Below, one piece after another: positions 36,524 to 64,000 of a stretch of 64,000 nt of DNA. Location: positions 3,686 to 67,685 of IMG/VR virus record IMGVR_UViG_3300045988_136686; one strand, given 5' to 3'. The DNA comes from a virus. The position numbers and the translations under genes are program-made. Positions within the stretch are counted from its first letter, which is position 1, and the number at the start of each line of letters is the position of its first letter. The notes under the pieces were generated by a model. That model had not been told where the DNA came from. It did not search any database and saw only the letters and a list, made by a program, of their open reading frames with translations.

Positions 36524-36555
36524 AAAAATATATAGTGTTTAGAATTATTAACAAT

Positions 36556-36870
36556 ATGACTATTAACGAAAGATTCTCAGAAATTCTCAAAACGAAAAGA
36601 ATTAGCGTCAAAGAAGCTGCCTCCATTATTGGGAAATCAGAAGTGTATATTAGGAAACTAATTCGTCCCGGAGAAAGTTTCGGTATAGAACCTGTTCTTT
36701 TAATCCTAAATAGTATCGATGGAATAAACCCAGATTGGTTATTGAGAGGTAAGGGTGAAATGTTTTTAGATAATAACACCCCAGAGAATGCAGCCCCGAT
36801 AACACAGGAACGCTTGTTTTCTGTCATCGAAAGCCAACAAAGGACAATCGAAAACCTTTCAAAAAAATAG
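36556..36870 (+). CDS. HTH transcriptional regulator (repressor/Cro-like)
   Basis: MTINERFSEILKTKRISVKEAASIIGKSEVYIRKL...PDWLLRGKGEMF. The track start at 36535 is GTG. Confidence 0.7.
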   Translation: MTINERFSEILKTKRISVKEAASIIGKSEVYIRKLIRPGESFGIEPVLLILNSIDGINPDWLLRGKGEMFLDNNTPENAAPITQERLFSVIESQQRTIENLSKK

Positions 36871-37329
36871 TTTTCTATATTATATGAGCAATCTTCCAAT
36901 AGTTCCCCTGCAACAGATGACTGTTTTCCAACCCGAATCCGACGGGCAGGGGAATATAGTATAATGGAAAGCTGTCTGAACTACTTTTGACAAAATTTGC
37001 CAATCCTTTTCTCTCTCCATTTTTTGTTCGTTTCTATTTTATTGAACTTGGTGAAGCGTGCCCGGTTGCCGAATTGCCGGATATTACTTACACGTCACGA
37101 CTTCGTTACTTCACCCCGACCGATCGCAAGTCTCGGCGTTCCCGCTATTGCGACTCTCGGTGTTCGATTCCGTTATTCATTACGCCAATAAGCTAACTTT
37201 TATTAGGTATTTGTATTTTTAATTTTATTTACTACCTTTGTTGTATTAACACAATACAAAGATACAGAATATTTCTGCAAAATATACAGATAAAACAGAA
37301 AATATTTGGATATTATATATATTTAACAC

Positions 37330-37860
37330 ATGAACGCCGCACAAAGATTAGAAGCCATTCTGAATTACTATGGTATAAATGCTAAGTCATTATCTGAGAA
37401 ATGTGGATATGGTAGGCCGCAAGGAATATACGATGTTCAAAATGGGAAAACAAAAGAAATTTCAACCACAATGGCAAACAAGATTTTATCTGTATTCCCT
37501 GAATTAAATAGAGTGTGGCTTCTCACAGGAGAGGGAAATATGATTAATGAAAGAAATAATTCAAGCATTATTGATAGCAACAATAACAATAGAGGAATTA
37601 TACAAAATAGTCATGGAAATATCAATAATGGTAATATTTCCATATCTTTGCCGGAAAGAGGTCAGCAAAAAATTATTGATCCAGACGGAAGGGTCACAAT
37701 AGAGAATACCAGTTCAGGCGCTCATGATTACCTGAACGAAATAAATAGACTTAACCAGAGGATACAAGACCTTGAAAGAATTATCAGCGGACATGAAGCT
37801 ACAATAAAGTCGAAAGACGATTTAATATGTATATTGAGGAGCGCATTAGATAAGAAATGA
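37330..37860 (+). CDS. HTH transcriptional regulator (CI-like) with coiled-coil C-terminus
   Basis: RLEAILNYYGINAKSLSEKCGY...RVWLLTGEGNMI. Same family signature as 36556..36870. Confidence 0.7.
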   Translation: MNAAQRLEAILNYYGINAKSLSEKCGYGRPQGIYDVQNGKTKEISTTMANKILSVFPELNRVWLLTGEGNMINERNNSSIIDSNNNNRGIIQNSHGNINNGNISISLPERGQQKIIDPDGRVTIENTSSGAHDYLNEINRLNQRIQDLERIISGHEATIKSKDDLICILRSALDKK

Positions 37861-37975
37861 TTTTTAAGTTTTATTGCTTCTAAATATAGCGAATATAACA
37901 ATGATTCTTTATACTAAAAACTTAGTTTTACAACATAATTTATAAGCAGATTCATACCTTAAAATATCAAATCCT

Positions 37976-39070
37976 ATGGACTTTAAAGATTCAATACAAC
38001 AACTATCTGAAAGAATAGCCAAACAACAAGATGCTATTGTAACGGAAGAGGGAACAAAAAATGCATTCATTATGCCGATGATTGCAGCACTCGGATATGA
38101 CATATTTAATCCATTTGAAGTCGTTCCAGAATTAGACTGCGACCTCATCAAGAAAAAAGGAGAAAAGATAGACTATGCCATAATGAAAGAAGAAAATCCT
38201 ATACTCCTTATAGAATGCAAGCATTGTAAACAAGACCTCAACTTACACGATACACAATTACAGAAATATTTCGTGGCTTCAAAAGCCAGATTCGGAGTAC
38301 TTACAAACGGTATAGAATATAGATTCTATACAGATCTTGACAAGCCCAATATTATGGACGAGAAACCTTTCTTGGTTGTAAATATGTTGGCGCTTACGGA
38401 TGCCGATGTGGAACAATTAAAGAAATTCAGTAAATCATATTATAATGAGGAGGAAATTTTAAGTACCGCCAACGAATTAAAATATGCTATTTCGATAAAG
38501 TCTATATTAAACAATGAGTTTAAGCAACCGTCACCCGATTTTGTTCGATTGCTTGCCAAACAGGCATACGACGGGCAAATTACACAGAAAATAATAGAGC
38601 AATTCACACCTATTATAAAACGATCTGTTCAAAGTATTATAAATGACACAATTTCAGACAGGCTGAATGTCGCCATTAAGACGAATGACGACAAAACAAA
38701 ACAGGAAGAAGATAGTACACAAAATGCAAAAGAAGAACTTCCTGATGGTGTTGTGTTCAGTGACAGAGATTCAGGAATTGTTACTACACAAGAGGAGATA
38801 GATGCTTATAATATTATAAGAAGCATATTGAGAAAAAGTATAGATGCGCAAAGAATAACTTATAAAGACAACAAGACATACTTTGTTGTAAACATAGATA
38901 ACGGCTATTGGTGGATATGCAGATTCTATTTCGGTAGTCGAAAAAAGCAAATATGTTTTCCTACGGACAATTACAAATCAAAAGAAATGTTCGAAATAGA
39001 AACGATAGATGACATCTTCAACTATGAAGATAAACTAATTGAATCATTGAAAATGGCTTTAAGAGAATAA
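37976..39070 (+). CDS. PD-(D/E)xK nuclease-fold protein (type I restriction HsdR N-terminal-like domain), paralog A
   Basis: 364 aa. EEGTKNAFIMPMIAALGY, KIDYAIM (D), LLIECKH (ExK), QLQKYF and GVLTNGIEYRFY. About three quarters identical to 60363..61523 over the first 60 aa by my manual alignment. Confidence 0.65.
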   Translation: MDFKDSIQQLSERIAKQQDAIVTEEGTKNAFIMPMIAALGYDIFNPFEVVPELDCDLIKKKGEKIDYAIMKEENPILLIECKHCKQDLNLHDTQLQKYFVASKARFGVLTNGIEYRFYTDLDKPNIMDEKPFLVVNMLALTDADVEQLKKFSKSYYNEEEILSTANELKYAISIKSILNNEFKQPSPDFVRLLAKQAYDGQITQKIIEQFTPIIKRSVQSIINDTISDRLNVAIKTNDDKTKQEEDSTQNAKEELPDGVVFSDRDSGIVTTQEEIDAYNIIRSILRKSIDAQRITYKDNKTYFVVNIDNGYWWICRFYFGSRKKQICFPTDNYKSKEMFEIETIDDIFNYEDKLIESLKMALRE

Positions 39071-39094
39071 TTAATTTATTAAAATTATCAAGTT

Positions 39095-39598
39095 ATGAAA
39101 AATCTTACATTACTCTTATTCAACATCTTACTATTAGCTTTTACCTCTTGCACACAGACAAATGAAGACAAAGCTCGCAGTTTAATAGAAGATCAACTTA
39201 AAAAAACAATGAATGATTGGAGCAGCTACGAATTTGTAGAGATGACACCCCTCGATAGCTCTTTCAGCGTACTATCAGACAACGAAGAATATTATAATCT
39301 TGGATTGAAGTTAAAAGTTTTAGACGCAAAATCAAATTACTTTATTTCAAATGTTAGTTCCGATTACCGAAACATGGACATGTGGACAGATAGTGCGAAA
39401 CAGGTAATTGCAGAGATGGAATCAGTAAACAAAAGAATGGACGAAATTCAATCATCATTTGTCCCAGAACATAATGGCTGGTGGACTAATTTCACTTGTA
39501 GAGGAAATAACAAATTAGGTCAAAAGGTTATATCAAAGACACGTTATTATTTTAACAAGGAAATTACGGAAATAACAGATACTAAAAAGGTTGAATAG
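39095..39598 (+). CDS. lipoprotein
   Basis: 167 aa. Lipobox LLLAFTSC. Confidence 0.65.
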   Translation: MKNLTLLLFNILLLAFTSCTQTNEDKARSLIEDQLKKTMNDWSSYEFVEMTPLDSSFSVLSDNEEYYNLGLKLKVLDAKSNYFISNVSSDYRNMDMWTDSAKQVIAEMESVNKRMDEIQSSFVPEHNGWWTNFTCRGNNKLGQKVISKTRYYFNKEITEITDTKKVE

Positions 39599-39722: not shown

Positions 39723-41018
39723 TCACTCTATCTCTTTCAACACATCTAACTTGATTTCATCATCTATGTCACGATAACGGGCAAATGCCTTGCTGCCCTC
39801 TACATGACCGCTCATAGACCCGATAATATTCGGGTCTTTTACTTTTTTATAAATATTCCCGATAAATGTACGACGTGCGAGGTGCGAGCTGGCAATCTCA
39901 TATATAGGCTTTTGCTCCTCTTTCTGCGTTACCGGATTTATTACGGTGACTTTTCTGTCGATGCCCGCCATTCTTAAAATCTTCTTGATGGAATCATTGT
40001 ATTTTTGCTCAGAGATAAAGGGGAAAAGTGTACGTCCTCCATATTCCTTGTACTTTTCCAATATTTCAATCGCTTTTTTAGTCAAAGGCACACGAGCATA
40101 TTCCTGATTATCCCCTTTCGTTTTTGTCGGAACATATTCAATAGCCCCGTCATTGATGTTTTCACGAGTTAACCTGTACAAATCACTTACTCTACAACCA
40201 ATCATACATTGAAAGACAAATATATCACGCTGTATGGCAAGAAAAGGATTGTTCGGCATTGGAAAATTGTACACCCTGTCACGCTCTTCTAAGGTAAGGA
40301 AATAAGGCCTCCCATATATTTGCTCCTTTATGGAATAATTTGCAAAAGGGTTGGTCGTTGTCTCCCCCATTCTCACTGCCCAAATATAGAACACCCTTAA
40401 CTTCGTCATCATGTTAGCAATAGTATTTCTACCTCTCGGCGATAACTTCTTGACTCCCTCATATAACGACGGGTATAATTCTGCTAATCTATACTCGTTT
40501 TTTAGATAATCTTCGAAATTAGACAAGTCAAATGCAGATATTTCGAGGCTCCACCTGAATTTTCCTCCATTAAAAATTTCGTAATTTTCATACCGGATCA
40601 TTATCCGCTTTAAAACATCATAATGTTCCTCTCGCTTCTCATCGTATTGTTTATAGATTAGGAATTTGTCAAATATATCGAAGAAATCATCATTAACAGG
40701 TGTTTCACCATTCACTCTACGCTGCATGGCATCACGCAACCATTCGCTCGTTGGCTGGTAGTCGTCTCCTCTTTCCTCCCATGTCCGAAGTATAAGAGAC
40801 TTTAATTCACTCACTTTTTCGTTGAAAATTCGTCTCTCTTTATCCGGGTACAATGCCCTCGATTTTATTTCTTCTCTCTTGTTGTCGAAAAGATCTACGT
40901 TTATCTGTAAATCGCTTACATAATATAATAATTTTGCCACCGGAGTAGATAGTCGGAAACGTACATTTACTATGTTATTTTTTTTGCTGGAACGAACGTA
41001 TGCTTTAACGGTTGCCAT
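39723..41018 (-). CDS. int: tyrosine recombinase / phage integrase
   Basis: Start trimmed to MATVKAYVR (the track start at 41045 is TTG). Catalytic SHLARRTF (HxxR) and FARYRD Tyr region. Confidence 0.85.
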   Translation of the reverse strand: MATVKAYVRSSKKNNIVNVRFRLSTPVAKLLYYVSDLQINVDLFDNKREEIKSRALYPDKERRIFNEKVSELKSLILRTWEERGDDYQPTSEWLRDAMQRRVNGETPVNDDFFDIFDKFLIYKQYDEKREEHYDVLKRIMIRYENYEIFNGGKFRWSLEISAFDLSNFEDYLKNEYRLAELYPSLYEGVKKLSPRGRNTIANMMTKLRVFYIWAVRMGETTTNPFANYSIKEQIYGRPYFLTLEERDRVYNFPMPNNPFLAIQRDIFVFQCMIGCRVSDLYRLTRENINDGAIEYVPTKTKGDNQEYARVPLTKKAIEILEKYKEYGGRTLFPFISEQKYNDSIKKILRMAGIDRKVTVINPVTQKEEQKPIYEIASSHLARRTFIGNIYKKVKDPNIIGSMSGHVEGSKAFARYRDIDDEIKLDVLKEIE

Positions 41019-41196
41019 AATTCCATTGCATTTTGTTTTGTGCAAAGTAAGTAATTATTTGCACAAATGAAGCACAAATTAAACTCAAAATATGTGTTAA
41101 ATCACACTATTAAACATACAACGAACCTAAATATAACAGCCAAAAGCCCGTATTTATCGGGATATAAAGCAAAATGAATGTTAAAACGCTTTTTAC

Positions 41197-46037: not shown

Positions 46038-46047
46038 TTTTGGCGAC

Positions 46048-46351: not shown

Positions 46352-46362
46352 GTGAACAATGT

Positions 46363-47219: not shown

Positions 47220-47319
47220 GCAACCAATTCTTATACTTTTTTACGATAAATCAAACGGTGATTCCAAGAAGTCAAAGAACGCTTTCCCGTCGCCGGGTTA
47301 TAAAAATTCATTTTTTTCG

Positions 47320-47589: not shown

Positions 47590-47590
47590 A

Positions 47591-48196: not shown

Positions 48197-48197
48197 A

Positions 48198-50026: not shown

Positions 50027-50027
50027 A

Positions 50028-50598: not shown

Positions 50599-50616
50599 AA
50601 TGTTTTGTATTTATGG

Positions 50617-51888
50617 TTAACTGATAATCCCGCTGTCGGGAATGTCGAATGTCACGTTTTTGGATAGTGAGTCGAGTTGGACGCCGGCCTCGCCCGACGA
50701 GGAGACCCCATACACGGAACAGGTCAGGTAATAGGTATGGGCTCCCGGTGGAAGGTCCGGATGTATCGTCCCCAAAGGGATATTCAAAATGAGAATCCCT
50801 GCTCCCTTGTATTCGTAATCATATATCGCGAGGAATCCGGACCCCGAAATGCGGAAGGTGTATTTCTCACCCACCGGAGGATTTCCGTTCGGAAAACTGA
50901 TACGCACCTGAAAGTAACTCGAAAGAAAATTGAAATACATGATTTTAATCGGGGTATATGTGCTGTTTATCTCGGCTGTCATGGCTATCGATGTGGGTAT
51001 GGGGAAATAATCCGCCACGGTGATCTGTTTGTCGACCCCTGTCCAGTATTTGAACGACTTCTTATCGATAAGGAACAATGTCACCTTCAAATTCGTCCCT
51101 ATCGAATCCTCCCCCGGAAATGTGTCGCTCTGTCCGACAGGAAGTATCGGCGGAGTAGTACCGTCACTGAAAAACTTGACCTTGAAAGCGGAGTACCACA
51201 CATTGCCCACCCGCAAGGTGGTTACGGTATTTGTCGAGGTATTTGTCAGCAATCGGGCAAAACTGCTTCCATTTCCATCGGTTGCCAAAATAGCCGGGTA
51301 ATAATCGCCGATACTCTTGTCGGAGGCCAGCGACAGCCACGACTCGACGGGTACGCCGGTAGGATTCACCGAAGTGTCGTAATAGTTAATATCGACAAAA
51401 AGATACGGCACGTCCGCACTGATTTCGTCAATTTTACTTCCGGTAAGATTAGGTTCCGCATTGTGGTCGTAGCCGTCGAAATCGCTCAGGCGGCAAAAAT
51501 CCGTCCCCGAGTGAGGATAGGCGACATAATCGAAAGAGGTATCATGGATAGCGACGATATTCGTGCCGTGCGGTATCGTAGCTTTCAAGCCATAGCGTAT
51601 GCCTTGATTCTTATCCGTTTCGCTTCCTTCCCATTGATTGATGTATGTCGTGACCCCGCCGGATTGCTGAGGATAGTTGTCGGATAGCGGTGCAGCCTGC
51701 GGATAGCGCACGGGTTTATGACGACTCCATTTGTTGATACGTCCCGGACGGCCACCCTGCAACAGGGGACGTTCGAGGGCAACGATGTCGGCCACGTCCC
51801 ATACCCCGTTTGCCGGGTATATTCCCAGCAGATTATACGGGTCGGTTATCGCTACCGGGGCTACGATCTTGTTTTTATCGATGGCCAT
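50617..51888 (-). CDS. hypothetical tail/baseplate protein
   Basis: 423 aa, directly downstream of the large fibre gene. Confidence 0.55.
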   Translation of the reverse strand: MAIDKNKIVAPVAITDPYNLLGIYPANGVWDVADIVALERPLLQGGRPGRINKWSRHKPVRYPQAAPLSDNYPQQSGGVTTYINQWEGSETDKNQGIRYGLKATIPHGTNIVAIHDTSFDYVAYPHSGTDFCRLSDFDGYDHNAEPNLTGSKIDEISADVPYLFVDINYYDTSVNPTGVPVESWLSLASDKSIGDYYPAILATDGNGSSFARLLTNTSTNTVTTLRVGNVWYSAFKVKFFSDGTTPPILPVGQSDTFPGEDSIGTNLKVTLFLIDKKSFKYWTGVDKQITVADYFPIPTSIAMTAEINSTYTPIKIMYFNFLSSYFQVRISFPNGNPPVGEKYTFRISGSGFLAIYDYEYKGAGILILNIPLGTIHPDLPPGAHTYYLTCSVYGVSSSGEAGVQLDSLSKNVTFDIPDSGIIS

Positions 51889-51892
51889 AGGC

Positions 51893-54800: not shown

Positions 54801-55186
54801 ACACTCATGAAATTGGCCGGGTTATCGGTAAGAGACCAATCCGGCTCCCGATTCGTTATCTCGTTATTCTCATCGTAAGAATACATGAAAAAAGGCACTT
54901 TACCCCATGATATAAATTTCGAATGAAATTGTGGTTTGTATTGAAATTCGACCTCGTTCTTTTGTTCTGGATTATATGGATCCAAAAGAGAATATTTCTC
55001 ACCATCGAGTATGATATAAGCCCCTACCGGAATCTCTTCATTTTGGTCCGAGTTCCACGACAATTCTACATAATCTGATTTCATCAATTCCTCTACATGA
55101 ACACATTCTTCTGTTATAGGAACTGATAAAATAGTCTCTCCTTGTATGTTTTTAATGTCTATCATGATGGTTTCGTATATCTTCAT
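51893..55186 (-). CDS. tail fibre/spike protein with C-terminal intramolecular chaperone (peptidase S74-like) domain
   Basis: 1097 aa. C-terminal TSDMRLKRDF...GLLYQKVKEVLP...GALNYL fits the auto-cleaving chaperone domain of tail spikes. Confidence 0.75.
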   Translation of the reverse strand: MKIYETIMIDIKNIQGETILSVPITEECVHVEELMKSDYVELSWNSDQNEEIPVGAYIILDGEKYSLLDPYNPEQKNEVEFQYKPQFHSKFISWGKVPFFMYSYDENNEITNREPDWSLTDNPANFMSVICKAIENETGDTWTYAVDSSLNASTSLSFQSIDILSALNSIASAFDTEWWVEKDSMIIHLSKSEHGAVVSLEVGENINTPSVTEGKDGYYTRFYAFGSTRNIVQEYKGANVNNLVNKRLTLDPKKYPNGYKDIRPNLQQGEIFSKILLFDDIYPSSELSISDVRFRLMWRIDSETNDKIQIGTDENGDPIYDQYAIWYFQIPEFNFDNSPYDEEKNPNGMRIPNKEPSVHFQSGALQGMEFELIYHDESKTITSDDGISFEVKKGDFEIKYKEEEGNYIIPAITGLIPSENDDIILFNVKMPEEYTDSAYIRLETAMNEEIERLSSDQNNYQFSSNPVVFDENNPDLSIGRKVEYINAGYSYVTRVISLTTKLDYPFEQTITIGNNLIKGNTQELKEEVASANKNIDLISAINDMTASLQQSYQRTVKQMQEGFARINDMWKFDTELENTIYSKFNVYSQGGISALGVWRGEGGGGGEGGLIKLVHGFDDLGGAFDNATLTDTFNAYTINEIWKLANAGASTIGTGNVVTAISKTGGNIVVTKGITLYDWVQQPNKPTYSLAEINNVSGTYTGLTVGRAVESDNAKKLNGLDNGAFLYKRGGMYETATGNGWLIRTKVEEAEAAMLTLHLIGNGYYSRRIINTIVQAYNYAPNDVEFTATAGTHFGDDLGDVKVFLYGGHVCFWVSAKTDYQTCSIFVYNTYGALNGTCENCVDSISLSPMPAVGVSKLTVVTPSVALTDNDSIAADRLKNIRTIWGNPFDGSNDVSGSLSGVRDITMKGDIDGANVIRAKGINLSTGSKSVSISSGRIVATNNIRSKESVTSDGNITAGGDISSQGNISAQGSVTALTTSDMRLKRDFDYTRSYTDRLLAMGRVCDFRYTEKARKRNKGGVDGEAHTGLLYQKVKEVLPSMAYETGDGYGALNYLSPDYINTIAGATQETARLVKALMEDIERLKKELSELKGKGGK

Positions 55187-55655: not shown

Positions 55656-56081
55656 TTATTTAAGTATAACTGAAGTTTTGTCTTTATTGATTTCTACAGG
55701 ACAATTTCGTATGTTTATAAGTCTAATAACTGCGTAATTACGGGCAACTATTATAGCTCTGGCTCCATGCATGAGTATAACTTTGTGAACTCTAGTATTA
55801 TCGTCAAATACTAGTTCCGCATTGGTATTGCCTATTAAAGCAATATTGGTATCATTACTTCTTTTTACATTTTTAGTGTCGACAAACACGCAATAATTAG
55901 CAATATCATTACTCATCTCACGGAACGTTTCAATAGGAGGGAAGTTGTTCTTTTCACAAAACTCTATGCCTTGTGGTGTAAAGAACAACCATACTAGAGT
56001 TTTCCAGTCACCAACACCATAAGACTTATTACAAGCTCCTTTTTGTAAAGCAGCCATCATTATTTCTTTTACTGTATTCAT
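55656..56081 (-). CDS. hypothetical tail-module protein
   Basis: 141 aa ORF following the tape measure gene. Confidence 0.5.
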   Translation of the reverse strand: MNTVKEIMMAALQKGACNKSYGVGDWKTLVWLFFTPQGIEFCEKNNFPPIETFREMSNDIANYCVFVDTKNVKRSNDTNIALIGNTNAELVFDDNTRVHKVILMHGARAIIVARNYAVIRLINIRNCPVEINKDKTSVILK

Positions 56082-56083
56082 AT

Positions 56084-59000
56084 CTATAAATCTTTAGTAT
56101 TCCTATTGACTTGTGCTATATCGGATTTTATATCAATTAATAATTTCGTATATTTTGCAATGTCTTCTAAGTAGCTATTCGTAATCACATGTTGATTAAG
56201 AATGTTATTTAGTATAGAATTGCTATTAGTTGATACAGATAAAAGAGAATTTAGAGAGATTACGGCTGAAATCATTTGGTTTTTGATTTCTTCACCAGAA
56301 AGCTGCAACGCTGTAAACCGGCCGTTTAATTCCGTTGCTGTATCTTGTGACATGGTTTCAAAACCTCCGGCTGTCGACTTTTGTTCGGTGGTAGAACTTT
56401 CTCCCATGAGACTATCAGCCCAACCGAATTGAGCATCTATTTCTTGTTGAAGCTGTTCAGCCATGTTGTTGATGTAATCTTGTTCCCATTGAGAAAGCAC
56501 GTTGTCGGCATAAAATTGTTGCAACTTAGTGCGTATTTCCTCCATTTTATTTGAGGATTTAATTGCTGCCTTAATGCTCTCTGTTACCATTTGTTGCATC
56601 ATCTGTTTTACAACATCTTTTGCAGATTTAGCCCTATTCTCGCCAGAAGCCCATGCATCTGCATAAGCTTCTGCAAAGTTGTCAATAGCACTTTTTAGGT
56701 CTTCACCAAATATGACATCGATAGCTTTTTCTTTGTTATCAGAAATGAGATTGTTTATTTCGTCAATTTGATTTTCCCATTCTTTTATTCTGTCGCTATC
56801 TGTATTCTTTTTATCTTTTTCTTCTTTAATTTGATTTTGAATAAGTACTTTTTGTTGTTCTAGCAATTTATTTTGGTCTTCAATCAAGCTGGAAGCACTC
56901 TTTCCGTAAGCAGTTTCAATGGACTTGCCTAACTTTTCATACGAACGGTCAAGTGTATCTACCTGATCTTGTAATTTCTGAATCCGTTTTTCATTTTTTG
57001 CGTCGTGGATTTTTGCGATAGAGGAAGCAAGAGAGGAGACAAGACCGATGGCAGCACCAGCAGCAGAACCTATCGGTCCAAATATAGCACCTGCTTCTGC
57101 CCCTTGCATAGCTGAATTGAGGCCGTCCATAGCCACATTGATACCTTCGGCAATGCCTGACAGTGTATCAGATCCGAAAGCCTCTCCGAGATTTGAAAAT
57201 GTGTCGGAAAGGAATTGGGCTACACTTAATACCTCACTTAATCCACTTCTTATTTCTTCAAGTCCATCTTGCAATTTTTTTGTGTTTGAACCGGCATCGA
57301 ATACTTTTTTAAGACCATTAGCTAGTTTGTTAAACCCCGTTTCAGATTGATCTGCGGAATTACGGACATTATCTATACCTTTTCTAATTCGTTCTAATTC
57401 TTCGGGAGATTTACGCAATGTGTCGAAGGTCTCTTTTGTCATACCAAATTCAAGACCTTTGTTTTCGTCCCATTCGCCTGATTGCAAGAATTGGAATGCT
57501 CGTTCAGCTTCATTAGCAATGAGACGCATATCTGCAACTGTGTGTTGACGCATATCGTCAAACAATTTACTTATGGCAGACGTAGATTTATTCGCCTCTA
57601 TATCCAAATCAGATAGTGCCCTTTTTGTTTCTTCGTCAATAGACTTCTGTTCCCATTCGTTTTTGCCTACCTTACGAGATTCGCCTTGCTCAATAATAGC
57701 ATTACGCTTTTCATAATAGTTCCCGTAAGCGGCAAGATAATCGTTCATTGCGTTAATTTCATCATCGAGAATTTCTTTGGTCTGTTTATTCTTATTCTTT
57801 TCATTTAACCTATTTGCGGTATCAATATTTTCCTGTTGTTCAGTTGTTAGTCCATTCTCATTAAGCTTGGAGGGTTCAATCTTAGCTACTTTGTTTAACT
57901 CGGCCAGCTCTTTCTCTTTCTTTTTAATTTCTTTTTTCTGTTCTTCATAATAGTAGTTAATTTGCTTCAATTTCTTATCTTTACCTTCTTCCCAGAGGGA
58001 GATTTCTTTCTCTTGATTTTTTTTACGAAGCTCAAGAAGTTCATCAACAAGTTTCTGCTCGGCCTCTTTTTGCTCTTTTGCTTGCTTATCTTCAGCCGCT
58101 TTATCAGATTTGGTTTTAGGCAGCTTTGCACGGAGTGCGTCAATTCGTGATTGTAACGCATTGTATTCCTTGCTTCCGCTTACGGTTTCTCCCTGCTCTT
58201 TCTCTAATTTTGAGATTTGTGTTTTGACTTCATTGATTACTCTCAAATCTTTCTCACGTTCAAGTATAGTGTCTTGAAGCGACTTGATATAAGCTTCTTG
58301 TTGATCCACTGCTTCTTTTGTTCCGCTGCCGTCTGCAAGAGCCTTTTTTAATGATGCAAGTGAGGTTTCAGCCTTCTTGATTTCTTCTTCAAGTTGGGAG
58401 ATGGATTTACCTTCGGTGGAAAATGGCTCATTTGCTGTCTGTTGAGAGGTATTTATACTTGTAACGCCAAACTTTTCACGGGCTTTTCCATCTAAATCCT
58501 CTGTTATTTTTTGCGCTTCTCGGATATTGGAGATATATGTATCAATACGTGAATCCGCAAAAATCGTACCTTTGTCTTGTATTTCATTTAGTTTGTCTTG
58601 GATCGCAGCATCCAAATCTCTTCGTTCCAATATGGCATGGTAGATTTCTGAATAGAGTTTTGCACCTTCTTTATCTCCTAACTCGCTATATAGGCGGTCT
58701 TGTATCTTTCCGAGATTATCGGACATTATGTTGTCCAACCAATCTTCCTGCTGCGACTTGAATTGCTGGTATTGTCTTGCCCCGTAAGAATCTGTGATTG
58801 CTTTTGTGAGTTTTTTATAAGCTTCTTCCGTGAGTCCAACCTTATTTATTTCTTCTTCGAGTCCATCATAATACTTGCTATATCCTGCAACAATTTTTTC
58901 TTTGACGGTATTATATTCATCTGTACCTTCTTTTAATGAAGACAATTCTCCATTGAGCTTAGCAAGTTCCCTTTGCTCAGATAAGGCTGCTTTCTCAGAT

Positions 59001-60172
59001 TCCTTTCCCGCAGCATCCAGCCTTTCCAGTGCCTTTTCTGCTTCTGTTTGATAAGTGACTAATTTATAAATGCCCAAACCTAGTGCTGCTACTGCCGCTG
59101 CTACTGCGACATATGGGTTGGCAAGTAAAGTCTTGTTCAGTGCAGCTTGCGCAACTTGCAATAATTTCGTGCGAGTAGCAGCCAAAGCTTCTGCATTTGA
59201 TAATGTTATTCCTGAAGCTGTTGCAAGACTTTGATTTAATGCGGACTGAGCTAATACGGCGGAATATACTTTTTGTAAAGCTGTTATAGTAATCAATGCA
59301 GCTTTATACGCTCCGTATGTTACGACGATTTCAAGCAAGGTTTTTCCGACAGTTTCATAGTTTTCTATCAAATAAGAAACGCTGGATAATGCATCATTGA
59401 TAATACCTTCATTCGCTTTGCCGATGTCGTTCAACATCATCGAGAAACTATCTCCTATGTTAGAAATCTGTCCGGTAATGGTTTTGCTTTGTTCTTGCAT
59501 TAAGTTAAAGAACATACCACCCTCGTTGGTAAGGTTCTGTATGACTTTCTGAACCTCTGGAAACCCTATCATACCAGCTTCTACCATTCCTTTGATTTCA
59601 CTTTCAGCTACTCCAAATTCTTTGGCAAGTTCTTTTATCATTGGAATACCTCGTCCAGTGAATTGGTTTAGGTCCTGTGTATAAAGTCGACCTTGTGTCA
59701 TAGTTGTACCATAGAGATATACTAAGTCTCCCAAAGGTTGTGAAAGTCCGGCTGCAATGTTCCCTAATCGTATAAGAGTCTCGTTAACATCTTCGGCAGA
59801 AGTACCGTAAGCCAGTAATTGACGAGCTCCATTGGCAACACCTTGTAAATCGAATGGAGTTTTGGCGGCTGTTTCTGTGAGCTGAGCCATAAGGACGTTT
59901 GCCTTTTCACTACTTCCAAGCATAGTGGTAAAGGCGACCTCTAATTGTTGAAATTCACCTCTTACTTGTATAATATTTTGGATAAGTTCTTTTGCTGTAA
60001 AGCCAGCCCCAAAAGCTGCAGCTGCTTTCGTCATTTTGTTGAACATATCTTCTATGCCCAATCCATTTTTTTCTATTTCCTTAGAAGTATTGGTTACTCC
60101 GGTTTCTACTTCTCGTAGTTTACGAAGAAAATTAGAATTGTCGCCTGTTATATCAAAATGAAGTCCGGCCAT
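56084..60172 (-). CDS. tail tape measure protein
   Basis: 1362 aa, largely coiled-coil, with a hydrophobic Gly/Ala-rich segment (GAIFGPIGSAAGAAIGLV). Canonical position. Confidence 0.85.
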   Translation of the reverse strand: MAGLHFDITGDNSNFLRKLREVETGVTNTSKEIEKNGLGIEDMFNKMTKAAAAFGAGFTAKELIQNIIQVRGEFQQLEVAFTTMLGSSEKANVLMAQLTETAAKTPFDLQGVANGARQLLAYGTSAEDVNETLIRLGNIAAGLSQPLGDLVYLYGTTMTQGRLYTQDLNQFTGRGIPMIKELAKEFGVAESEIKGMVEAGMIGFPEVQKVIQNLTNEGGMFFNLMQEQSKTITGQISNIGDSFSMMLNDIGKANEGIINDALSSVSYLIENYETVGKTLLEIVVTYGAYKAALITITALQKVYSAVLAQSALNQSLATASGITLSNAEALAATRTKLLQVAQAALNKTLLANPYVAVAAAVAALGLGIYKLVTYQTEAEKALERLDAAGKESEKAALSEQRELAKLNGELSSLKEGTDEYNTVKEKIVAGYSKYYDGLEEEINKVGLTEEAYKKLTKAITDSYGARQYQQFKSQQEDWLDNIMSDNLGKIQDRLYSELGDKEGAKLYSEIYHAILERRDLDAAIQDKLNEIQDKGTIFADSRIDTYISNIREAQKITEDLDGKAREKFGVTSINTSQQTANEPFSTEGKSISQLEEEIKKAETSLASLKKALADGSGTKEAVDQQEAYIKSLQDTILEREKDLRVINEVKTQISKLEKEQGETVSGSKEYNALQSRIDALRAKLPKTKSDKAAEDKQAKEQKEAEQKLVDELLELRKKNQEKEISLWEEGKDKKLKQINYYYEEQKKEIKKKEKELAELNKVAKIEPSKLNENGLTTEQQENIDTANRLNEKNKNKQTKEILDDEINAMNDYLAAYGNYYEKRNAIIEQGESRKVGKNEWEQKSIDEETKRALSDLDIEANKSTSAISKLFDDMRQHTVADMRLIANEAERAFQFLQSGEWDENKGLEFGMTKETFDTLRKSPEELERIRKGIDNVRNSADQSETGFNKLANGLKKVFDAGSNTKKLQDGLEEIRSGLSEVLSVAQFLSDTFSNLGEAFGSDTLSGIAEGINVAMDGLNSAMQGAEAGAIFGPIGSAAGAAIGLVSSLASSIAKIHDAKNEKRIQKLQDQVDTLDRSYEKLGKSIETAYGKSASSLIEDQNKLLEQQKVLIQNQIKEEKDKKNTDSDRIKEWENQIDEINNLISDNKEKAIDVIFGEDLKSAIDNFAEAYADAWASGENRAKSAKDVVKQMMQQMVTESIKAAIKSSNKMEEIRTKLQQFYADNVLSQWEQDYINNMAEQLQQEIDAQFGWADSLMGESSTTEQKSTAGGFETMSQDTATELNGRFTALQLSGEEIKNQMISAVISLNSLLSVSTNSNSILNNILNQHVITNSYLEDIAKYTKLLIDIKSDIAQVNRNTKDL

Positions 60173-60362
60173 GAGTCTTTTCGATTAAAGGGGGTAGATG
60201 TAACATCACATCATTTGCAAATATACAAAAGTGTATGAAATTCATATACTTTTGATAAAATAGAATAGAGTTAATAAAGTTTAACTAATGTGTGAGTATA
60301 AATATTTTAATAAATGATTATTGTATTATACTTTTGACGAAACAATCTTAACAGCATAAGAT

Positions 60363-61523
60363 ATGGATTTCAAAGATACAATTCAACAGATTGTAGAGAA
60401 AATTGCTAAACAGAAGGATAGCATAGCAACGGAAGAAGCGACAAAAAACTCTTTTGTAATGCCTGTGATAGCAGCATTGGGATATGATGTATTCAATCCC
60501 TTTGAGGTTGTACCGGAAATGGATTGTGACTTAGTTAAGAGGAAAGGCGAAAAAATAGACTATGCCATAATGAAGGACGAAAATCCTATATTACTTATAG
60601 AATGCAAGCATTGTAAACAAAACTTGAATTTACATGACACTCAGTTACAAAGATATTTTGTCGCTTCAAAGGCTAGGTTTGGGGTCTTGACGAATGGAAT
60701 AGAATATCGCTTTTATACAGATTTAGAAAAGGTGAACATAATGGACGAAAAGCCGTTCCTTGTGGTGAATATGCTCGACTTATCGGACAACGATATTGAG
60801 CAACTAAAAAAGTTTCATAAGTCTTATTATAATGAGCAAGATATATTGAGTACGGCACAAGAGTTACAAATCACGATACAAGTAAAAGAAATGCTTAATC
60901 GTAATTTCCAAATGCCAGACGATGAATTTACACGTTATTTTGTCCGTAATCTTAATGATGGGAAATATACGGCAAAACTTGTGGACCAATATAGACCTAT
61001 TGTTAAGAAATCCATTGCTTCGGTGATTAACGATATTATATCCGACCGTTTGAATGTGGCTATGAAGAATGAGAATAAGGATGAAAAACAAATGCCACAG
61101 GAGGTTGAGAATGAAAATCAACAGCCGAACGAAATGAATGAAGAAAAACTTCCTGATGGTGTAGTATTTCAAGACCGAGAAAAAGGTATAGTTACTATAC
61201 AAGAGGAGATAGATGCCTATAATATCGTGCGTAGTATATTGAGGCAGTATGTAGATGTATCTCGTATTCAATATAACGACTACAAGACTTATTTTTCCGT
61301 GAACATAGATGGTAGTACATGGTGGTGGATTTGCCGCATTTATATAGGGAAACGGAGTAAAAAAATATGCTTGCCAAAGGATAACTACAAGACGAATGAA
61401 TGGATTGACATCGAGACTATCGATGATATTTTTAATTATGCCGATGGTCTTAAAGAGGGTCTTGATTTGGCATTGAAAGAGGCGAATTATTGGCTTGCAA
61501 AGAAAAATGAATTAGAAAAATGA
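60363..61523 (+). CDS. PD-(D/E)xK nuclease-fold protein (HsdR N-terminal-like domain), paralog B
   Basis: 386 aa. Same D...ExK...Q..Y...TNG motifs as 37976..39070. Antisense to the flanking tail genes. Confidence 0.65.
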   Translation: MDFKDTIQQIVEKIAKQKDSIATEEATKNSFVMPVIAALGYDVFNPFEVVPEMDCDLVKRKGEKIDYAIMKDENPILLIECKHCKQNLNLHDTQLQRYFVASKARFGVLTNGIEYRFYTDLEKVNIMDEKPFLVVNMLDLSDNDIEQLKKFHKSYYNEQDILSTAQELQITIQVKEMLNRNFQMPDDEFTRYFVRNLNDGKYTAKLVDQYRPIVKKSIASVINDIISDRLNVAMKNENKDEKQMPQEVENENQQPNEMNEEKLPDGVVFQDREKGIVTIQEEIDAYNIVRSILRQYVDVSRIQYNDYKTYFSVNIDGSTWWWICRIYIGKRSKKICLPKDNYKTNEWIDIETIDDIFNYADGLKEGLDLALKEANYWLAKKNELEK

Positions 61524-62014
61524 CAAACGTAACTAATACAAATTTTAGAATTATGAGAAAGTTTTTGCTAATCATAGTTTGTGCTTTATCCATTACATCT
61601 TGCTCAGATAATGATCCTGAGATATTATCAGTAATGATTAATGTAAAATGTGATAATAAAATTGCATCTCCTTCTTTGGTTCGCTTATATGAATATGAAA
61701 CAGCAAGAGACTTTGATGACAGCTATATGTCTACAATGGAGTACGGCGATTCTCAAGTTTTAAGAGATAAGTTGGGTAATGAGTTGACTCCCGCATATAC
61801 ATCTGACACGTTTTCTGGAATAAATATTTTTGAGGACATAAAAACAGGGGTATATTTGGCTGTAATACTTTATAAACCTGACGGCTTTACATGGCCGATG
61901 TTTTATTTTTATGGATATAAAGTAATTAATGTTGACGAGGATAATAACGCACTTTTACATAATATATGTTTTTCTTATAGTGAATACGACCGAGGTAAAT
62001 TCATTGAGTTTTAG
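61520..62014 (+). CDS. lipoprotein
   Basis: ATGA-coupled to the upstream gene. Lipobox MRKFLLIIVCALSITSC (internal ATG at 61553). Confidence 0.6.
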   Translation: MTNVTNTNFRIMRKFLLIIVCALSITSCSDNDPEILSVMINVKCDNKIASPSLVRLYEYETARDFDDSYMSTMEYGDSQVLRDKLGNELTPAYTSDTFSGINIFEDIKTGVYLAVILYKPDGFTWPMFYFYGYKVINVDEDNNALLHNICFSYSEYDRGKFIEF

Positions 62015-62727
62015 TCCCACTTCATTCCTTTTATTTTATCCATATTTTTAGGATCGTCCCCGTTTATAAATGTTCGGTCCGTAGATATATGATATTTTTT
62101 TATCTCATCGTCAGTAAGGTATATAGATGTTATGTAATCATTAAGTAACATATGCAGGTTGGCATAACTAATACCCCATACAACATAGTCCATAGTCCAG
62201 CCATAGCGTTCGCAGGCTATATCTATCAAAGTACCATAAATACTTTTACCTCCAAAGGTTATAGTGTTACACTTCTTTTTCTTGATTCTTGATATTTTTT
62301 CTTGTTCTTTTTTCTCAATATCAATCTTAAAGTGTTGAATAAACTGGTCAATGTTATCCTTTGATAACACTATTATGAATAGTTGAGCAAGTTCTTCATT
62401 CGATAGGTTGTCTTCAAATAGCTTTCGTCTTTCATTTATTAGGTGGCTATTGAATAATTCTTCCTTTTTATCGAATGTATGGTAAGACAATATTTTGCAT
62501 ATAATATCTCTTTTGGAATCGCATAATCGTAATGCTTCCATATATGGATTTAGAGAAAGGAAGTCTTTATTTATTTCTAAATTTTCGGTAAGACGTGATA
62601 AAAGGTATATTTTACCTAATGTGGCAGGGTATAAGTAGAATTGCATTTCTCCTATATGGAACTCATAAGGTCTTTCCATGATAGTATCTGCAATATCCAT
62701 TTCTATTATTTTCCCTTCTTTGTCCAT
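62011..62727 (-). CDS. hypothetical protein in tail assembly chaperone position
   Basis: Start trimmed to MDKEGKII, because the 5' part of the track ORF overlaps a tRNA. Confidence 0.5.
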   Translation of the reverse strand: MDKEGKIIEMDIADTIMERPYEFHIGEMQFYLYPATLGKIYLLSRLTENLEINKDFLSLNPYMEALRLCDSKRDIICKILSYHTFDKKEELFNSHLINERRKLFEDNLSNEELAQLFIIVLSKDNIDQFIQHFKIDIEKKEQEKISRIKKKKCNTITFGGKSIYGTLIDIACERYGWTMDYVVWGISYANLHMLLNDYITSIYLTDDEIKKYHISTDRTFINGDDPKNMDKIKGMKWD

Positions 62728-62745
62728 GCAAAATAAATTATATTG

Positions 62746-62816
62746 AGCGCAACTGTGGGGTCGAACCACAACTTTATACATGGAGTGTATATGTGCTACC
62801 GTTACACTAGATACGC
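62746..62816 (-). tRNA. tRNA, Gly(UCC)-like, with C at position 33
   Basis: Reverse complement is GCGTATCTAGTGTAACGGTAGCACATATACACTCCATGTATAAAGTTGTGGTTCGACCCCACAGTTGCGC plus T. Anticodon stem TATAC/GTATA, loop ACTCCAT. The GCG acceptor start and U73 fit Gly identity. Confidence 0.65.
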
Positions 62817-62869
62817 AGAACACGTGGGTACGAAGCCCCCACGTTTGGCTCTATCTACAACCTATTGAA

Positions 62870-63418
62870 TTATCCACCAACACTTGGATTAGGAGCTACT
62901 TCGAATTTATCACCGTCTCCAGACTCATCTTCAGGATCGCATTCAATTTTACTGATGTTTCCACCAGATTCCGTCACGATGATTTTACCCCACTGAATTT
63001 GTTTTTTATCGGCGGCTGCTTTCAAAGCATCAAAAGTGTATGCCCAAACACCACCGTCAGCAGAAGTAAAAGTGTCTTCGACGGAAACTGTCGTTTTCTC
63101 CATGCAGAAGCCTTGAACTTCTGGGTCTTCCGGTTGAACAACAACGGCATAATTGTGTGCAACAATACCATCGCTATCACTTACAGGACGCTTACGTCCT
63201 TTTGCGGCACGAATGTTCAATGCCAAAGCATAGGTATTCTTTCCATACTTTACATCTTCATTTTCGCCTCCTTCGATTTTTGCTTCTTGTTTATCTCCTT
63301 TTGTTGTTGTCAACTGTGTAGAATCTTCCACAGGGGTAGGTAATTCCTCCCATTTAGGAGCAGAAGCATCCAAATCTTTTATAAATACACGGGGCTTACC
63401 CCATCCTATTACTGCCAT
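62870..63418 (-). CDS. putative major tail (tube) protein
   Basis: 182 aa. The call rests on position upstream of the chaperone and tape measure genes and on size. No motif recognised. Confidence 0.45.
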   Translation of the reverse strand: MAVIGWGKPRVFIKDLDASAPKWEELPTPVEDSTQLTTTKGDKQEAKIEGGENEDVKYGKNTYALALNIRAAKGRKRPVSDSDGIVAHNYAVVVQPEDPEVQGFCMEKTTVSVEDTFTSADGGVWAYTFDALKAAADKKQIQWGKIIVTESGGNISKIECDPEDESGDGDKFEVAPNPSVGG

Positions 63419-63443
63419 GATATACCTAATTTATATTAAAAAT

Positions 63444-63866
63444 TTATTCGTTATTTATCTCTATGTACAGTTTGTTATTAATGAAATGCTCTGTATGTCC
63501 GTCTTCAAATGAAACTCCTGTTGAATCAGTTTTTTGACTGCATTGTGATGGAACCGTATGATATTCGTCTTTTCGTATAGCGAATAAAAACTTCGATAGT
63601 TCGCATAATTCACAAATTCGGATTGAATCTTTTTCCCATGTTTTAGTTTCAGAGTCCCATAAGTCTTTGACATATATATTGACATTCACATAGGCTCGTT
63701 GTATTTGTCCGCAACCTTCATTTGCAAGAACAGATATGACTATATCTTCTTTATCAGATTTGTTGGGCCTTCCTCTGTCACTCAATTTACCGGAGACATT
63801 ACATTCGAGTTCTGTACCTTTAATTTTGTGATAAACGAACTTAGCTATTTCAATATCAGATTTCAT
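63444..63866 (-). CDS. hypothetical virion protein (tail completion position)
   Basis: 140 aa ORF. Confidence 0.45.
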   Translation of the reverse strand: MKSDIEIAKFVYHKIKGTELECNVSGKLSDRGRPNKSDKEDIVISVLANEGCGQIQRAYVNVNIYVKDLWDSETKTWEKDSIRICELCELSKFLFAIRKDEYHTVPSQCSQKTDSTGVSFEDGHTEHFINNKLYIEINNE

Positions 63867-64000
63867 TATTTCGCAATCTGTCTTTTAAGTTTTTCAAGCA
63901 TCAATGGAACTTGTTCTCTTGCCCAAAGTTCGGTTGATGCAAGTACGTCTTTATTATCCATCGCTTCTACAAATTCAGCATAGTTCATTCCGGCGACTAC
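63866..64000 (-). CDS. partial CDS, 3' end only (truncated by window edge)
   Basis: The frame is open to the window edge. It ends ...LMLEKLKRQIAK with a TAA overlapping the next ATG (TAATG). Confidence 0.45.
   Translation of the reverse strand, partial: VVAGMNYAEFVEAMDNKDVLASTELWAREQVPLMLEKLKRQIAK

Follow-up and report, generated by a model that had tools for sequence, protein, structure and literature searches.

The window analyzed here, a stretch of 64,000 nucleotides, belongs to a temperate siphovirus-like phage of gut Bacteroidales of about 67 kb. It contains a cassette of two plus-strand ORFs at 60363..61523 (386 aa) and 61520..62014 (164 aa), referred to as nuc2 and lipo2, which encode a PHROG 4225 protein with a predicted HsdR-type PD-(D/E)XK nuclease domain and a predicted lipoprotein, respectively. 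The preliminary description of this locus as a plus-strand two-gene unit amid minus-strand tail genes was confirmed in both coordinates and strands; between 41976 and 63866 all other family-matching ORFs of at least 100 aa are on the minus strand. The cassette is flanked on one side by the minus-strand gene for the tape measure protein (56084..60172, 1362 aa), whose homolog in related contigs has the Pfam domain TMP_3, and on the other by a minus-strand gene located upstream of the tape measure gene (62011..62823, or alternatively 62011..62727; 229 aa as called in related contigs). The latter had been described as a tail chaperone, which fits its position, but its sequence matches only phrog_11996, a family of unknown function, and its designation as a putative tail assembly chaperone is positional. 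Its stop codon overlaps the stop of lipo2 by 4 nt in convergent orientation.

The region at 60223..60362, a candidate promoter of the cassette on the plus strand, is specific to the insert. It is missing in relatives in which the site is empty, where the similarity stops about 50 nt before the ATG of the tape measure gene, and blastn searches with it yielded matches in near-identical phages only. Two identical TACTTTTG boxes of the TAnnTTTG type are present at 60247-60254 and 60329-60336, each embedded in a 16-nt direct repeat (TATACTTTTGAyrAAA), with the second box 27 nt ahead of the nuc2 ATG. The first of these had been reported earlier at 60245-60252, 2 nt off, and the second had been missed. 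Since TAnnTTTG occurs at chance frequency in the window (72 found versus 65 expected, and hence no enrichment), the boxes by themselves are weak evidence for a promoter.

The left limit of the insert is marked by native sequence, a small conserved stem-loop on the minus strand (60196..60213) that precedes the ATG of the tape measure gene by 25-40 nt. It was found at filled and empty sites alike, and a comparison of 6 phages revealed compensatory changes in 4 of its 7 predicted pairs. No terminal inverted repeats or target-site duplication were found around the insert, so that a transposon-like mechanism is unsupported. A search for an intrinsic terminator on the plus strand after 62014 was negative, and megablast of 56000-64000 against 50,697 phage records gave zero matches.

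An ATGA at 61520-61523 is common to the nuc2 stop and the start of the lipo2 ORF, as had been pointed out, but translation of the lipoprotein probably does not begin there. All lipo2 homologs start at the internal Met12 (MRKF/MKKF), which suggests that the true start is probably at 61553; this would give a protein of 153 aa and a gap of 29 nt between the genes rather than a translational overlap.

A second locus of the same type, here called copy 1, is located on the plus strand in the lysogeny module (37330..39598). It consists of an HTH gene (37330-37860), judged to be repressor-like from its position, the first nuclease copy, nuc1 (37976-39070), and the lipoprotein gene lipo1 (39095-39598), and is convergent with a minus-strand integrase gene (39723-41045).

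Nuclease and lipoprotein families

The nuc2 protein matched phrog_4225, annotated as endonuclease, over the full length of the profile (E = 4.4e-121; residues 1-368 versus profile positions 2-352 of 357), and the same family was recovered with nuc1 (E = 2.2e-128). Two Pfam domains scored above their cut-offs in nuc2, HSDR_N (PF04313; 51.9 bits, cut-off 25.1) and HSDR_N_2 (PF13588; 36.2 bits, cut-off 25), with similar scores for nuc1. A total of 6768 homologs of nuc2 were identified at E <= 0.001, and the PHROG 4225-type family comprised 1037 clusters at 50% identity with E <= 1e-30. For lipo2 there were 7 homologous clusters with 39 invariant columns. On these grounds, both ORFs of the cassette are real genes and not chance ORFs.

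The conservation of the catalytic motifs D...E-x-K and QxxxY was examined in an alignment of 109 diverse nuc2 homologs with identities of 30-68%. Residues D66, E80 and Y98 were invariant, and K82 and Q94 were conserved in at least 90% of the sequences. The AlphaFold2 model inferred from this alignment (pLDDT 91.3) consists of a nuclease domain (residues ~1-135), a helical middle (158-242), an acidic disordered linker (249-271) and a C-terminal alpha/beta domain (280-385). The best Foldseek matches in the PDB were the type IIG enzyme BpuSI (probability 0.98), the HsdR protein of Vibrio vulnificus (0.99) and the EcoR124I HsdR subunit, with E-values of only 0.009-0.8 because a single domain of the three-part protein aligns. 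No match was obtained at E <= 0.1 when the PDB was searched by sequence, with either the single sequence or a profile. The motifs and the model together indicate that nuc2 encodes a predicted nuclease with an HsdR-type PD-(D/E)XK fold and intact catalytic motifs. An earlier model built from 37 close homologs had a pLDDT of 62.6, and the fold search with it was uninformative. For the C-terminal domain of nuc2 the highest-ranking matches were to the C-terminal domain of T4 MotA (probability 0.54) and to PUR-alpha and frataxin-like folds, none of them convincing.

The nuclease domains of HsdR from EcoR124I, of the V. vulnificus fragment and of BpuSI thus share with nuc2 the Pfam domain, the motifs and the fold (Foldseek probabilities 0.98-0.99). 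Unlike these enzymes, nuc2 is only 386 aa in size and lacks helicase/translocase, methyltransferase and specificity domains, and its nuclease domain is instead connected, through the disordered linker, with a small alpha/beta domain of unassigned fold. Pfam identified the N-terminal nuclease domain alone, with no SF2 helicase/translocase domain, and neither hsdM and hsdS nor any other methyltransferase partner is adjacent to nuc2 or to copy 1. The size, the missing helicase and the lack of adjacent hsdM/hsdS genes argue against nuc2 being the HsdR subunit of a type I restriction-modification system. Four independent N-terminal TerD fusions in the nuclease family link it to Ter-type stress and phage-inhibition systems.

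The two nucleases of the window were 66% identical over 373 aa, with marked differences among regions. Residues 1-157 had 84% identity and the C-terminal domain 64.5%, compared with 46% for the helical middle and 41% for the acidic linker. An identity of about three quarters in the first 60 residues (45/60, 75%) and a divergence in the acidic linker had both been proposed from a manual alignment and hold. The locus is a second homologous copy, as had been stated, but it is not a duplicate: every one of the 120 listed homologs was closer to nuc2 than nuc1 is, which rules out an in-genome duplication from nuc1 to nuc2. Either copy occurs alone in phages with the same integrase or with the same tail site. 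The two nuclease-lipoprotein copies were acquired independently.

Both lipoproteins have a signal peptide with a lipobox, ending in LSITSC in lipo2 and in LAFTSC in lipo1. The lipo2 lipobox sequence is MRKFLLIIVCALSITSC; its cysteine, which was invariant in 8 sequences, is Cys28 (codon at 61601-61603) and is followed by the acidic SDNDPE. In the homologs the cysteine is followed by K-(D/E)2, a surface-export signal in Bacteroidetes (PMC5080379), and lipo2 is probably surface-exposed. Searches of Pfam, PHROG, NCBIfam and PADLOC yielded no match to lipo2, and lipo1 matched only phrog_21933, a family of unknown function. There was no detectable similarity between lipo1 and lipo2 (best E = 4.7), in line with the preliminary description, in which no similarity between the two was visible.

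In Bacteroidales the position after the nuclease gene is nearly always occupied by a gene for a variable exported protein. Of 78 viral loci from Bacteroidales, 77 had an ORF on the same strand within 30 nt of the nuclease gene (gaps of -4 to 30 nt), and 76 of these 77 ORFs encode a protein with an N-terminal signal peptide or lipobox, whereas the product of the remaining one has a membrane segment in its interior. This slot is occupied by at least 11 unrelated families.

The tail-gene junction in related phages

With the phrog_11996-matching gene upstream of the tape measure gene as an anchor, we compared the site across related phages. The chaperone-to-tape-measure junction is normally uninterrupted: in 18 related loci it was empty, with 33-160 nt between the genes, so the cassette does not occur at this site in all relatives. 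Placed between genes that are adjacent in relatives, the insert appears to be of the moron type.

Among near-identical phages, in which the flanks were 98.6-99.3% identical, the site was found in four states. Three of these had an intact nuclease gene followed by one of three unrelated lipoprotein genes, encoding proteins of 164, 231 or 273 aa, while in the fourth the nuclease was internally deleted. The blastn breakpoints showed that the segment exchanged between these phages is exactly 61472-62008 of the window (plus strand), which includes the last ~17 codons of nuc2 and the entire lipoprotein gene. Variants B and C have unrelated segments of 833 bp or 902 bp in its place, and the lipoproteins of both variants have a signal peptide with a lipobox cysteine. 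That the architecture is conserved and the partner swapped, as suggested earlier from the two copies, thus holds within near-identical flanks.

Other arrangements separated the two genes. Most of the nuclease gene was lost and the lipoprotein gene retained in three loci (L005, L008 and L039), and some phages had lipo1 without nuc1, or neither gene, beside the same integrase. Homologs of lipo2 elsewhere followed a TerB_N gene or were the last gene of an HTH operon that contained no nuclease. The two genes are found together here, as the term cassette implied, but the arrangements in relatives show that they are separable modules.

Larger antisense islands were present at the same tail site in a sister clade. 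Their cargo included AbiGi (PADLOC E = 4e-55; Pfam E = 5e-35) as well as an AbiC/AbiP-like protein and PDC-S31/DUF2971 (E = 4e-45). On the basis of the empty sites, the swapped lipoproteins and the Abi cargo, the chaperone/tape-measure junction is a recurrent insertion hotspot for defense cargo. The antisense insertion, which had been considered unusual, is not so for this phage group. The hotspot is precisely defined: its boundaries are known, and both empty sites and knock-outs occur naturally.

Candidate functions of the insert

The nuclease family has a preferred position in other phages. In seven examined phages from six bacterial genera the gene adjoined that of the repressor, shared its strand and preceded the integrase. 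It immediately followed the repressor, or a pair of repressor and metalloprotease genes, in Fusobacterium FNU_1P, Streptococcus IPP25, Enterococcus EG-TP1, Corynebacterium Juicebox and Acetoanaerobium ANDSL2_ph1, and separated from the repressor by one small ORF in Klebsiella KpF5. The order in Bacteroidota genomes and viral contigs was HTH, nuclease, exported protein and integrase, as in copy 1, and in the examined phages outside Bacteroidota the nuclease had no conserved partner. Prophages of Porphyromonas and Halomonas had the nuclease gene upstream of the tape measure gene and on the strand of the tail genes, which could reflect late expression and a different role; in the Halomonas prophage a nuclease and lipoprotein pair was located ahead of the tape measure gene.

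Since related phages have either nothing or known anti-phage genes at the site, the most likely reading of the insert is anti-phage cargo of an already familiar type, made from uncharacterised parts. More specifically, we think it rather probable that the ~1.8-kb accessory, moron-type insert (~60223 to 62010) is hotspot cargo that combines a putative anti-phage nuclease with an exclusion-type lipoprotein. No PADLOC-DB 2.0 system model was matched by nuc2, lipo1 or lipo2, and the nuclease region of nuc1 yielded weak matches to mad2 (E = 1.7e-4) and to a type IIG enzyme (E = 2.9e-4); without a whole-protein PADLOC match, the assignment to defense rests on context. NCBIfam provided nothing useful for the nuclease or the lipoprotein. 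A literature search on the HsdR N-terminal domain (PF04313, DUF450) in connection with prophages or defense retrieved no functional study of the family, and in a Campylobacter comparison a solitary gene with an HsdR-N domain was present in the phage-resistant strain only.

We infer from the sequences that the cassette encodes a putative prophage-expressed defense nuclease and a superinfection-exclusion-type lipoprotein. The two genes would be independent modules that lie opposite the tail operon behind their own candidate promoter region, and both would be expressed in the prophage state, with the tail operon silent. Transcription of the cassette may, as had been proposed, collide with that of the tail operon. 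The cytoplasmic nuclease may attack incoming foreign (phage) DNA, and the lipoprotein may act at the envelope as superinfection-exclusion factors do. The lipoprotein allele would be exchanged repeatedly through diversifying selection and through recombination inside the conserved nuclease gene. Elsewhere the family is presumably part of the repressor operon, being beside the repressor, on its strand and ahead of the integrase.

Prophage defense genes located beside the repressor in the lysogeny region include lambda rexAB, P22 sieB and BTP1 bstA. The PHROG 4225 genes resemble these in being downstream of the repressor, on its strand and ahead of the integrase, also in copy 1, but the protein families are unrelated, and nuc2 itself is outside the repressor operon, in the tail module, with its own putative promoter. 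Superinfection-exclusion lipoproteins are exemplified by Llp of T5 and Cor of phi80 and N15. Lipoproteins of the Ltp type in prophage lysogeny modules exclude superinfecting phages, and the target of Ltp from the Streptococcus phage TP-J34 is the tape measure protein (PMC3952083). Like Ltp, Llp and Cor, lipo1 and lipo2 are small and prophage-encoded, differ from one related phage to another and have their genes either among those for the tail or in the lysogeny module; unlike them, lipo2 has a diderm host and a likely surface-export signal, is without sequence similarity to these proteins and shows no visible co-variation with tail genes. In 36 contigs, the tail module of which was heavily mosaic, we observed no co-variation between the lipoprotein alleles and those of the tail or receptor-binding genes, and there is thus no support for a lipoprotein that masks the phage's own receptor.

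This lack of co-variation is also compatible with the idea that the cargo serves the phage or its host outside anti-phage defense, which we consider unlikely. The nuclease could act in prophage maintenance or addiction, in recombination or in degradation of host DNA upon induction, or be delivered with the virion where it is co-oriented with the tail genes, and the lipoprotein could mediate lysogenic conversion of the host surface for nutrient capture, immune evasion or competition. The many unrelated exported proteins in the slot suit general lysogenic conversion as well as exclusion, the nuclease shares the strand of the tape measure gene in the Halomonas and Porphyromonas prophages, and there is no PADLOC membership. 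However, internal deletions and nuclease-free relatives indicate that the nuclease is dispensable to the phage, its usual place is beside the repressor and on the repressor's strand rather than in a lytic operon, recognized Abi genes occupy the same site in the sister clade, and the TerD fusions point to conflict and stress systems.

We find it improbable that the nuclease and its exported partner constitute one coupled two-gene system, in which the lipoprotein allele sets or gates the nuclease response. The linkage is tight and recurrent (77/78 loci), the breakpoint of the exchange falls within the nuclease gene, at its 3' end, so that each lipoprotein brings its own nuclease C-terminal tail, and the pair precedes the tape measure gene in the Halomonas prophage too. 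On the other hand, the nuclease lacks a signal peptide and its partners are secreted or located in the outer membrane, which makes direct contact implausible; moreover, the lipoprotein gene persists where the nuclease is deleted, the lipo1 and lipo2 families are found without the nuclease, and the partner is not conserved outside Bacteroidota.

A homing-type origin, with nuc2 as a selfish free-standing endonuclease that inserted itself along with a passenger gene and spreads by cutting empty sites in co-infecting relatives, is highly improbable: the sporadic intergenic insertion between conserved structural genes, the empty alleles in relatives, the PD-(D/E)XK fold linked to a putative DNA-binding domain and the recurrence of the family near the tape measure gene in distant phages resemble homing endonucleases, but the dominant place beside the repressor in lysogeny modules across phyla does not, and the insert lies antisense to the late operon, from which homing enzymes would usually be expressed, shares its site with unrelated Abi cargo and has no terminal repeats or target duplication.

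Defense hotspots are known from P2 and P4, a phage and a satellite genome. Morons have been described in phage genomes (PMC3594210). With these the insert shares a fixed place between conserved genes, interchangeable cargo and empty sites in relatives, and it differs in being located at the tape-measure junction, antisense to the tail operon, in temperate phages of gut Bacteroidales and without a terminator. The putative anti-phage cassette stays within the known logic of prophage morons and defense hotspots. A far bolder proposal, to which we give little credence, is that PHROG 4225 is a widespread uncatalogued single-protein anti-phage nuclease co-expressed with the repressor in prophages of many phyla, which in Bacteroidales would form a matched unit with the downstream exported protein, with exchanges at the 3' end re-tuning immunity at envelope and cytoplasm and the junction serving as a dedicated landing site.

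The family is nevertheless a concrete candidate for defense, with more than 1000 clusters, a repressor-adjacent position in the examined phages of several phyla and no entry in PADLOC. In Bacteroidales the slot after the nuclease holds hypervariable exported proteins, which may influence the host range of phages and the cell surface of abundant gut bacteria. Human gut metagenomes commonly contain this phage group: a single cluster of nuc2 homologs at 90% identity, itself 99% identical to nuc2, was present on 628 contigs.

Genome layout and the antisense cassette

As the preliminary description had it, a plus-strand two-gene unit lies between minus-strand tail genes. It consists of a nuclease gene (nuc2, 60363..61523, 386 aa) and a lipoprotein ORF (lipo2, 61520..62014, 164 aa). 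The ATGA stop/start overlap claimed for the two is present in these ORFs (61520-61523), but all lipo2 homologues start at the internal Met12 and the likely lipo2 start is therefore 61553. The unit is flanked by the tape measure gene (56084..60172, minus strand, 1362 aa; Pfam TMP_3 on homologues) and by the gene upstream of it (62011..62823, minus strand), whose stop overlaps that of lipo2 by 4 nt. The latter gene is where a tail chaperone had been placed, but its sole PHROG match is phrog_11996, of unknown function, and "tail assembly chaperone" is therefore a label by position.

A first copy of the unit, nuc1 (37976-39070) and lipo1 (39095-39598), is part of the lysogeny genes (36535..39598, plus strand); the integrase is at 41045..39723 (minus strand). 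PHROG matches on the minus strand identified replication initiation and DNA methyltransferase genes (about 31150 to 26750), portal, head morphogenesis and terminase genes (20192 down to 1639) and tail proteins (55654 down to 46707). In our reading the early region spans 36400 to 20500, and the tail module takes up the whole stretch between about 64000 and 41976, its minus-strand ORFs extending toward the integrase. Judging from gene order in related contigs, the left end of the window continues from its right end, and the window therefore represents a single phage genome, about 67 kb in size. Among contigs encoding a protein identical to nuc2, the longest is 67,685 bp, and nuc1 and nuc2 both belong to one and the same phage.

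An 893-aa head-morphogenesis protein (14484-17165, minus strand) has an extra match to a PHROG whose annotation is Bxa ADP-ribosyl transferase, and its C-terminal part matches head maturation protease; a fused effector associated with the virion is one possibility. Cargo of metabolic look is located in the head/packaging region (3552-7165, minus strand), where a 692-aa amidoligase (phrog_2443; related-contig homologues match Pfam Amidoligase_2 and GNAT-phage-like) accompanies a 284-aa protein with a related-contig homologue that matches the D-Ala-D-Ala ligase C-terminal domain. The distal tail genes (41976-55186) show extreme mosaicism among otherwise near-identical phages (loci L235-L304). 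The most variable of them (48581-50026, 481 aa; 52-92% identity, partial matches) likely encodes the receptor-binding protein.

Variable content of the tail site

We surveyed the site in 80 viral loci, anchored on the gene that precedes the tape measure gene. The nuclease and 164-aa lipoprotein were found as in the window in 22 full and 3 partial loci (variant A), while the same nuclease was paired with an unrelated 231-aa lipoprotein in 10 loci (variant B) and with an unrelated 273-aa lipoprotein containing a Pfam BDI_0842 domain in 8 loci (variant C). In 3 loci a 912-bp internal deletion left a 66-aa nuclease stub, with the B or C lipoprotein kept (variant D). Across these variants the anchor gene was 97-100% identical to that of the window and the flanks 98.6-99.3%, and the exchanged segment corresponded to 61472-62008, that is, the final ~17 nuclease codons and the lipoprotein gene. 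The pairing of one nuclease with three unrelated lipoproteins in near-identical phages directly bears out the earlier suggestion that the architecture is kept and the partner swapped. The lipoprotein alleles did not track the tail-gene alleles in 36 contigs.

The cassette was not carried by all relatives. In 18 loci with anchors 38-62% identical, the site was empty and only 33-160 nt preceded the tape measure gene, as expected if this junction is normally uninterrupted. Other antisense cargo islands, 2.3 kb to more than 5.9 kb in size, occupied the site in 11 loci. One of them (L066, 6740-10079, minus strand) encodes AbiGi (PADLOC E = 4e-55), an AbiC/AbiP-like protein and PDC-S31/DUF2971. The range of site states and the Abi genes therefore identify the site as a hotspot that takes up defence-type cargo in antisense orientation. 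The observation of the preliminary description is confirmed, and its reading supported with corrections: accessory or defence cargo at a phage hotspot is a known phenomenon, of which the cassette is one more case, and it combines a nuclease family that is uncharacterised yet very widespread with a hypervariable slot for exported proteins.

L066, L061 and L062 belong to a sister clade with multi-gene antisense islands at this site; the L061 island encodes 433-aa and 147-aa proteins with hydrophobic stretches, neither with a match above the Pfam cut-off. A small stem-loop (60196-60213, minus strand), which precedes the tape measure ATG by 25-40 nt, was kept in filled and empty sites, which therefore places the left insert edge at about 60216-60225. 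In the six phages that conserve it, 4 of its 7 pairs show compensatory changes. The stem-loop could act as a signal in translation or RNA processing of the tape measure gene. In one empty-site relative (L080:6724-10458) the tape measure gene is split into a 406-aa and an 832-aa ORF, which may reflect sequencing error, a pseudogene or programmed recoding.

Two nuclease copies and their family

The two nucleases are 66% identical over 373 aa. Identity was 75% over the first 60 aa, matching the three quarters estimated previously, 84% over residues 1-157, 46% in the helical middle and 64.5% in the C-terminal domain; the acidic linker, already singled out as divergent, had 41%. The two lipoproteins are unrelated, also as described. 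Among the homologues listed, all 120 were closer to nuc2 than nuc1 is, and a different phage with an empty tail site (L083) carried a nuc1 module 99-100% identical. We therefore consider the copies independent acquisitions from a shared pool and reject an in-genome duplication on the same two grounds. A contig with the same integrase (140509) has nuc2 and lipo2 at the tail site and neither nuc1 nor lipo1.

In six annotated temperate phages the nuclease gene shares the strand of the repressor, lies downstream of it and precedes the integrase. Its immediate upstream neighbour is the repressor, or a repressor and metalloprotease pair, in five (Fusobacterium FNU_1P, Streptococcus IPP25, Enterococcus EG-TP1, Corynebacterium Juicebox and Acetoanaerobium ANDSL2_ph1); in Klebsiella KpF5 one small ORF separates the repressor and nuclease genes. 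Bacteroidota genomes have the order HTH, nuclease, small exported protein, 84-85-aa ORF, integrase. Copy 1 is thus arranged in the usual way, and copy 2 is a unit of this kind moved to the tail hotspot. A same-strand ORF followed within 30 nt of the nuclease gene in 77 of 78 Bacteroidales viral loci; a signal peptide or lipobox was present at the N-terminus in 76 of these ORFs, and the remaining one had a membrane segment internally, with N-termini read by eye as the automatic classifier under-called lipoproteins. At least 11 unrelated families fill this slot in the Bacteroidales viral loci.

The tape-measure-proximal position recurs across phyla. In Porphyromonas phages the nuclease gene shares its strand with the tape measure gene, lies just upstream of it and has HicAB and an anti-CRISPR candidate as neighbours; in Halomonas prophages (L106:168-4798, L110:3981-9107) it is directly upstream of a long same-strand ORF. 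In L106 the nuclease is followed by a lipoprotein gene and a TMP_3 tape measure protein; in L110 it is preceded by a DUF6246 protein and followed by a 750-aa ORF with no Pfam match.

Residues 24-123 of nuc2 match Pfam HSDR_N and HSDR_N_2, and the full length corresponds to PHROG 4225 ("endonuclease", E = 4e-121). In an alignment of 109 homologues (30-68% identity), K28, D66, E80, Y98, G112 and D128 were invariant and K82 and Q94 at least 90% conserved, a pattern that corresponds to the PD-(D/E)XK triad and QxxxY motif of HsdR-type nucleases. An AlphaFold2 model from this alignment (pLDDT 91.3) predicts a nuclease domain, long helices (158-242), a disordered acidic linker (249-271) and a C-terminal domain of a helix, a five-strand sheet and a helix. 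Foldseek searches of the PDB matched the N-terminal domain to BpuSI (probability 0.98), a V. vulnificus HsdR fragment (0.99) and EcoR124I HsdR, and gave no convincing match for the C-terminal domain. Unlike type I restriction enzymes, nuc2 has no motor, methyltransferase or specificity modules, and hsdM and hsdS are absent among its neighbours, on which grounds we reject its assignment to this class.

Separability, regulation and possible role

The evidence says that the nuclease and lipoprotein genes are separable. Tail-site relatives have lost the nuclease by deletion while the lipoprotein stays, lipo1 occurs without nuc1, same-integrase phages with neither exist, and no constant partner accompanies the nuclease outside Bacteroidota. 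The lipo2 family is very small (7 clusters); one homologue, 41% identical, is encoded directly behind a TerB_N-domain protein and overlaps it by 4 nt (L131:1977-3523) and another closes an HTH operon without a nuclease. The lipobox Cys is invariant in the family and is followed by K-(D/E)2 in the homologues and by acidic SDNDPE in the window allele; K-(D/E)2 is a lipoprotein surface-export signal of Bacteroidetes (PMC5080379). A signal peptide is absent from the nuclease, which makes a physical link with an outer-membrane lipoprotein unlikely. In a same-integrase locus (L215:1514-3994), lipo1 and a 192-aa lipoprotein gene are in tandem behind a different 183-aa gene in the nuclease's place, which shows the modularity of the lysogeny-module slot.

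The repressor-side same-strand position, the Abi genes at the hotspot, TerD fusions and the dispensability of the nuclease for the phage point to a prophage-expressed anti-phage role for the nuclease, inferred from context. Four independent N-terminal TerD fusions occur in the family (P0200, P0202, P0231 and P0243) and, with the lipo2 homologue behind TerB_N, therefore connect both cargo families to Ter-type stress/phage-inhibition systems. The exported partner would best be compared with superinfection-exclusion lipoproteins such as Ltp, a lysogeny-module gene product for which the tape measure protein was identified as target (PMC3952083). None of the cassette proteins belonged to a PADLOC family, and no self-protection mechanism for the nuclease was evident.

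No terminator was found after the nuc2-lipo2 unit, and the promoter motif occurred at chance frequency across the window. On the other hand, the insert-specific region upstream of nuc2 contains a 16-nt direct repeat, TATACTTTTGAyrAAA (60245-60260 and 60327-60342), with an identical box in each copy. A copy with 2 mismatches is located in the lysogeny switch region (36980-36995), upstream of the HTH gene at 37330. With 4 matches against 1.0 expected, the element could be a shared promoter or operator.
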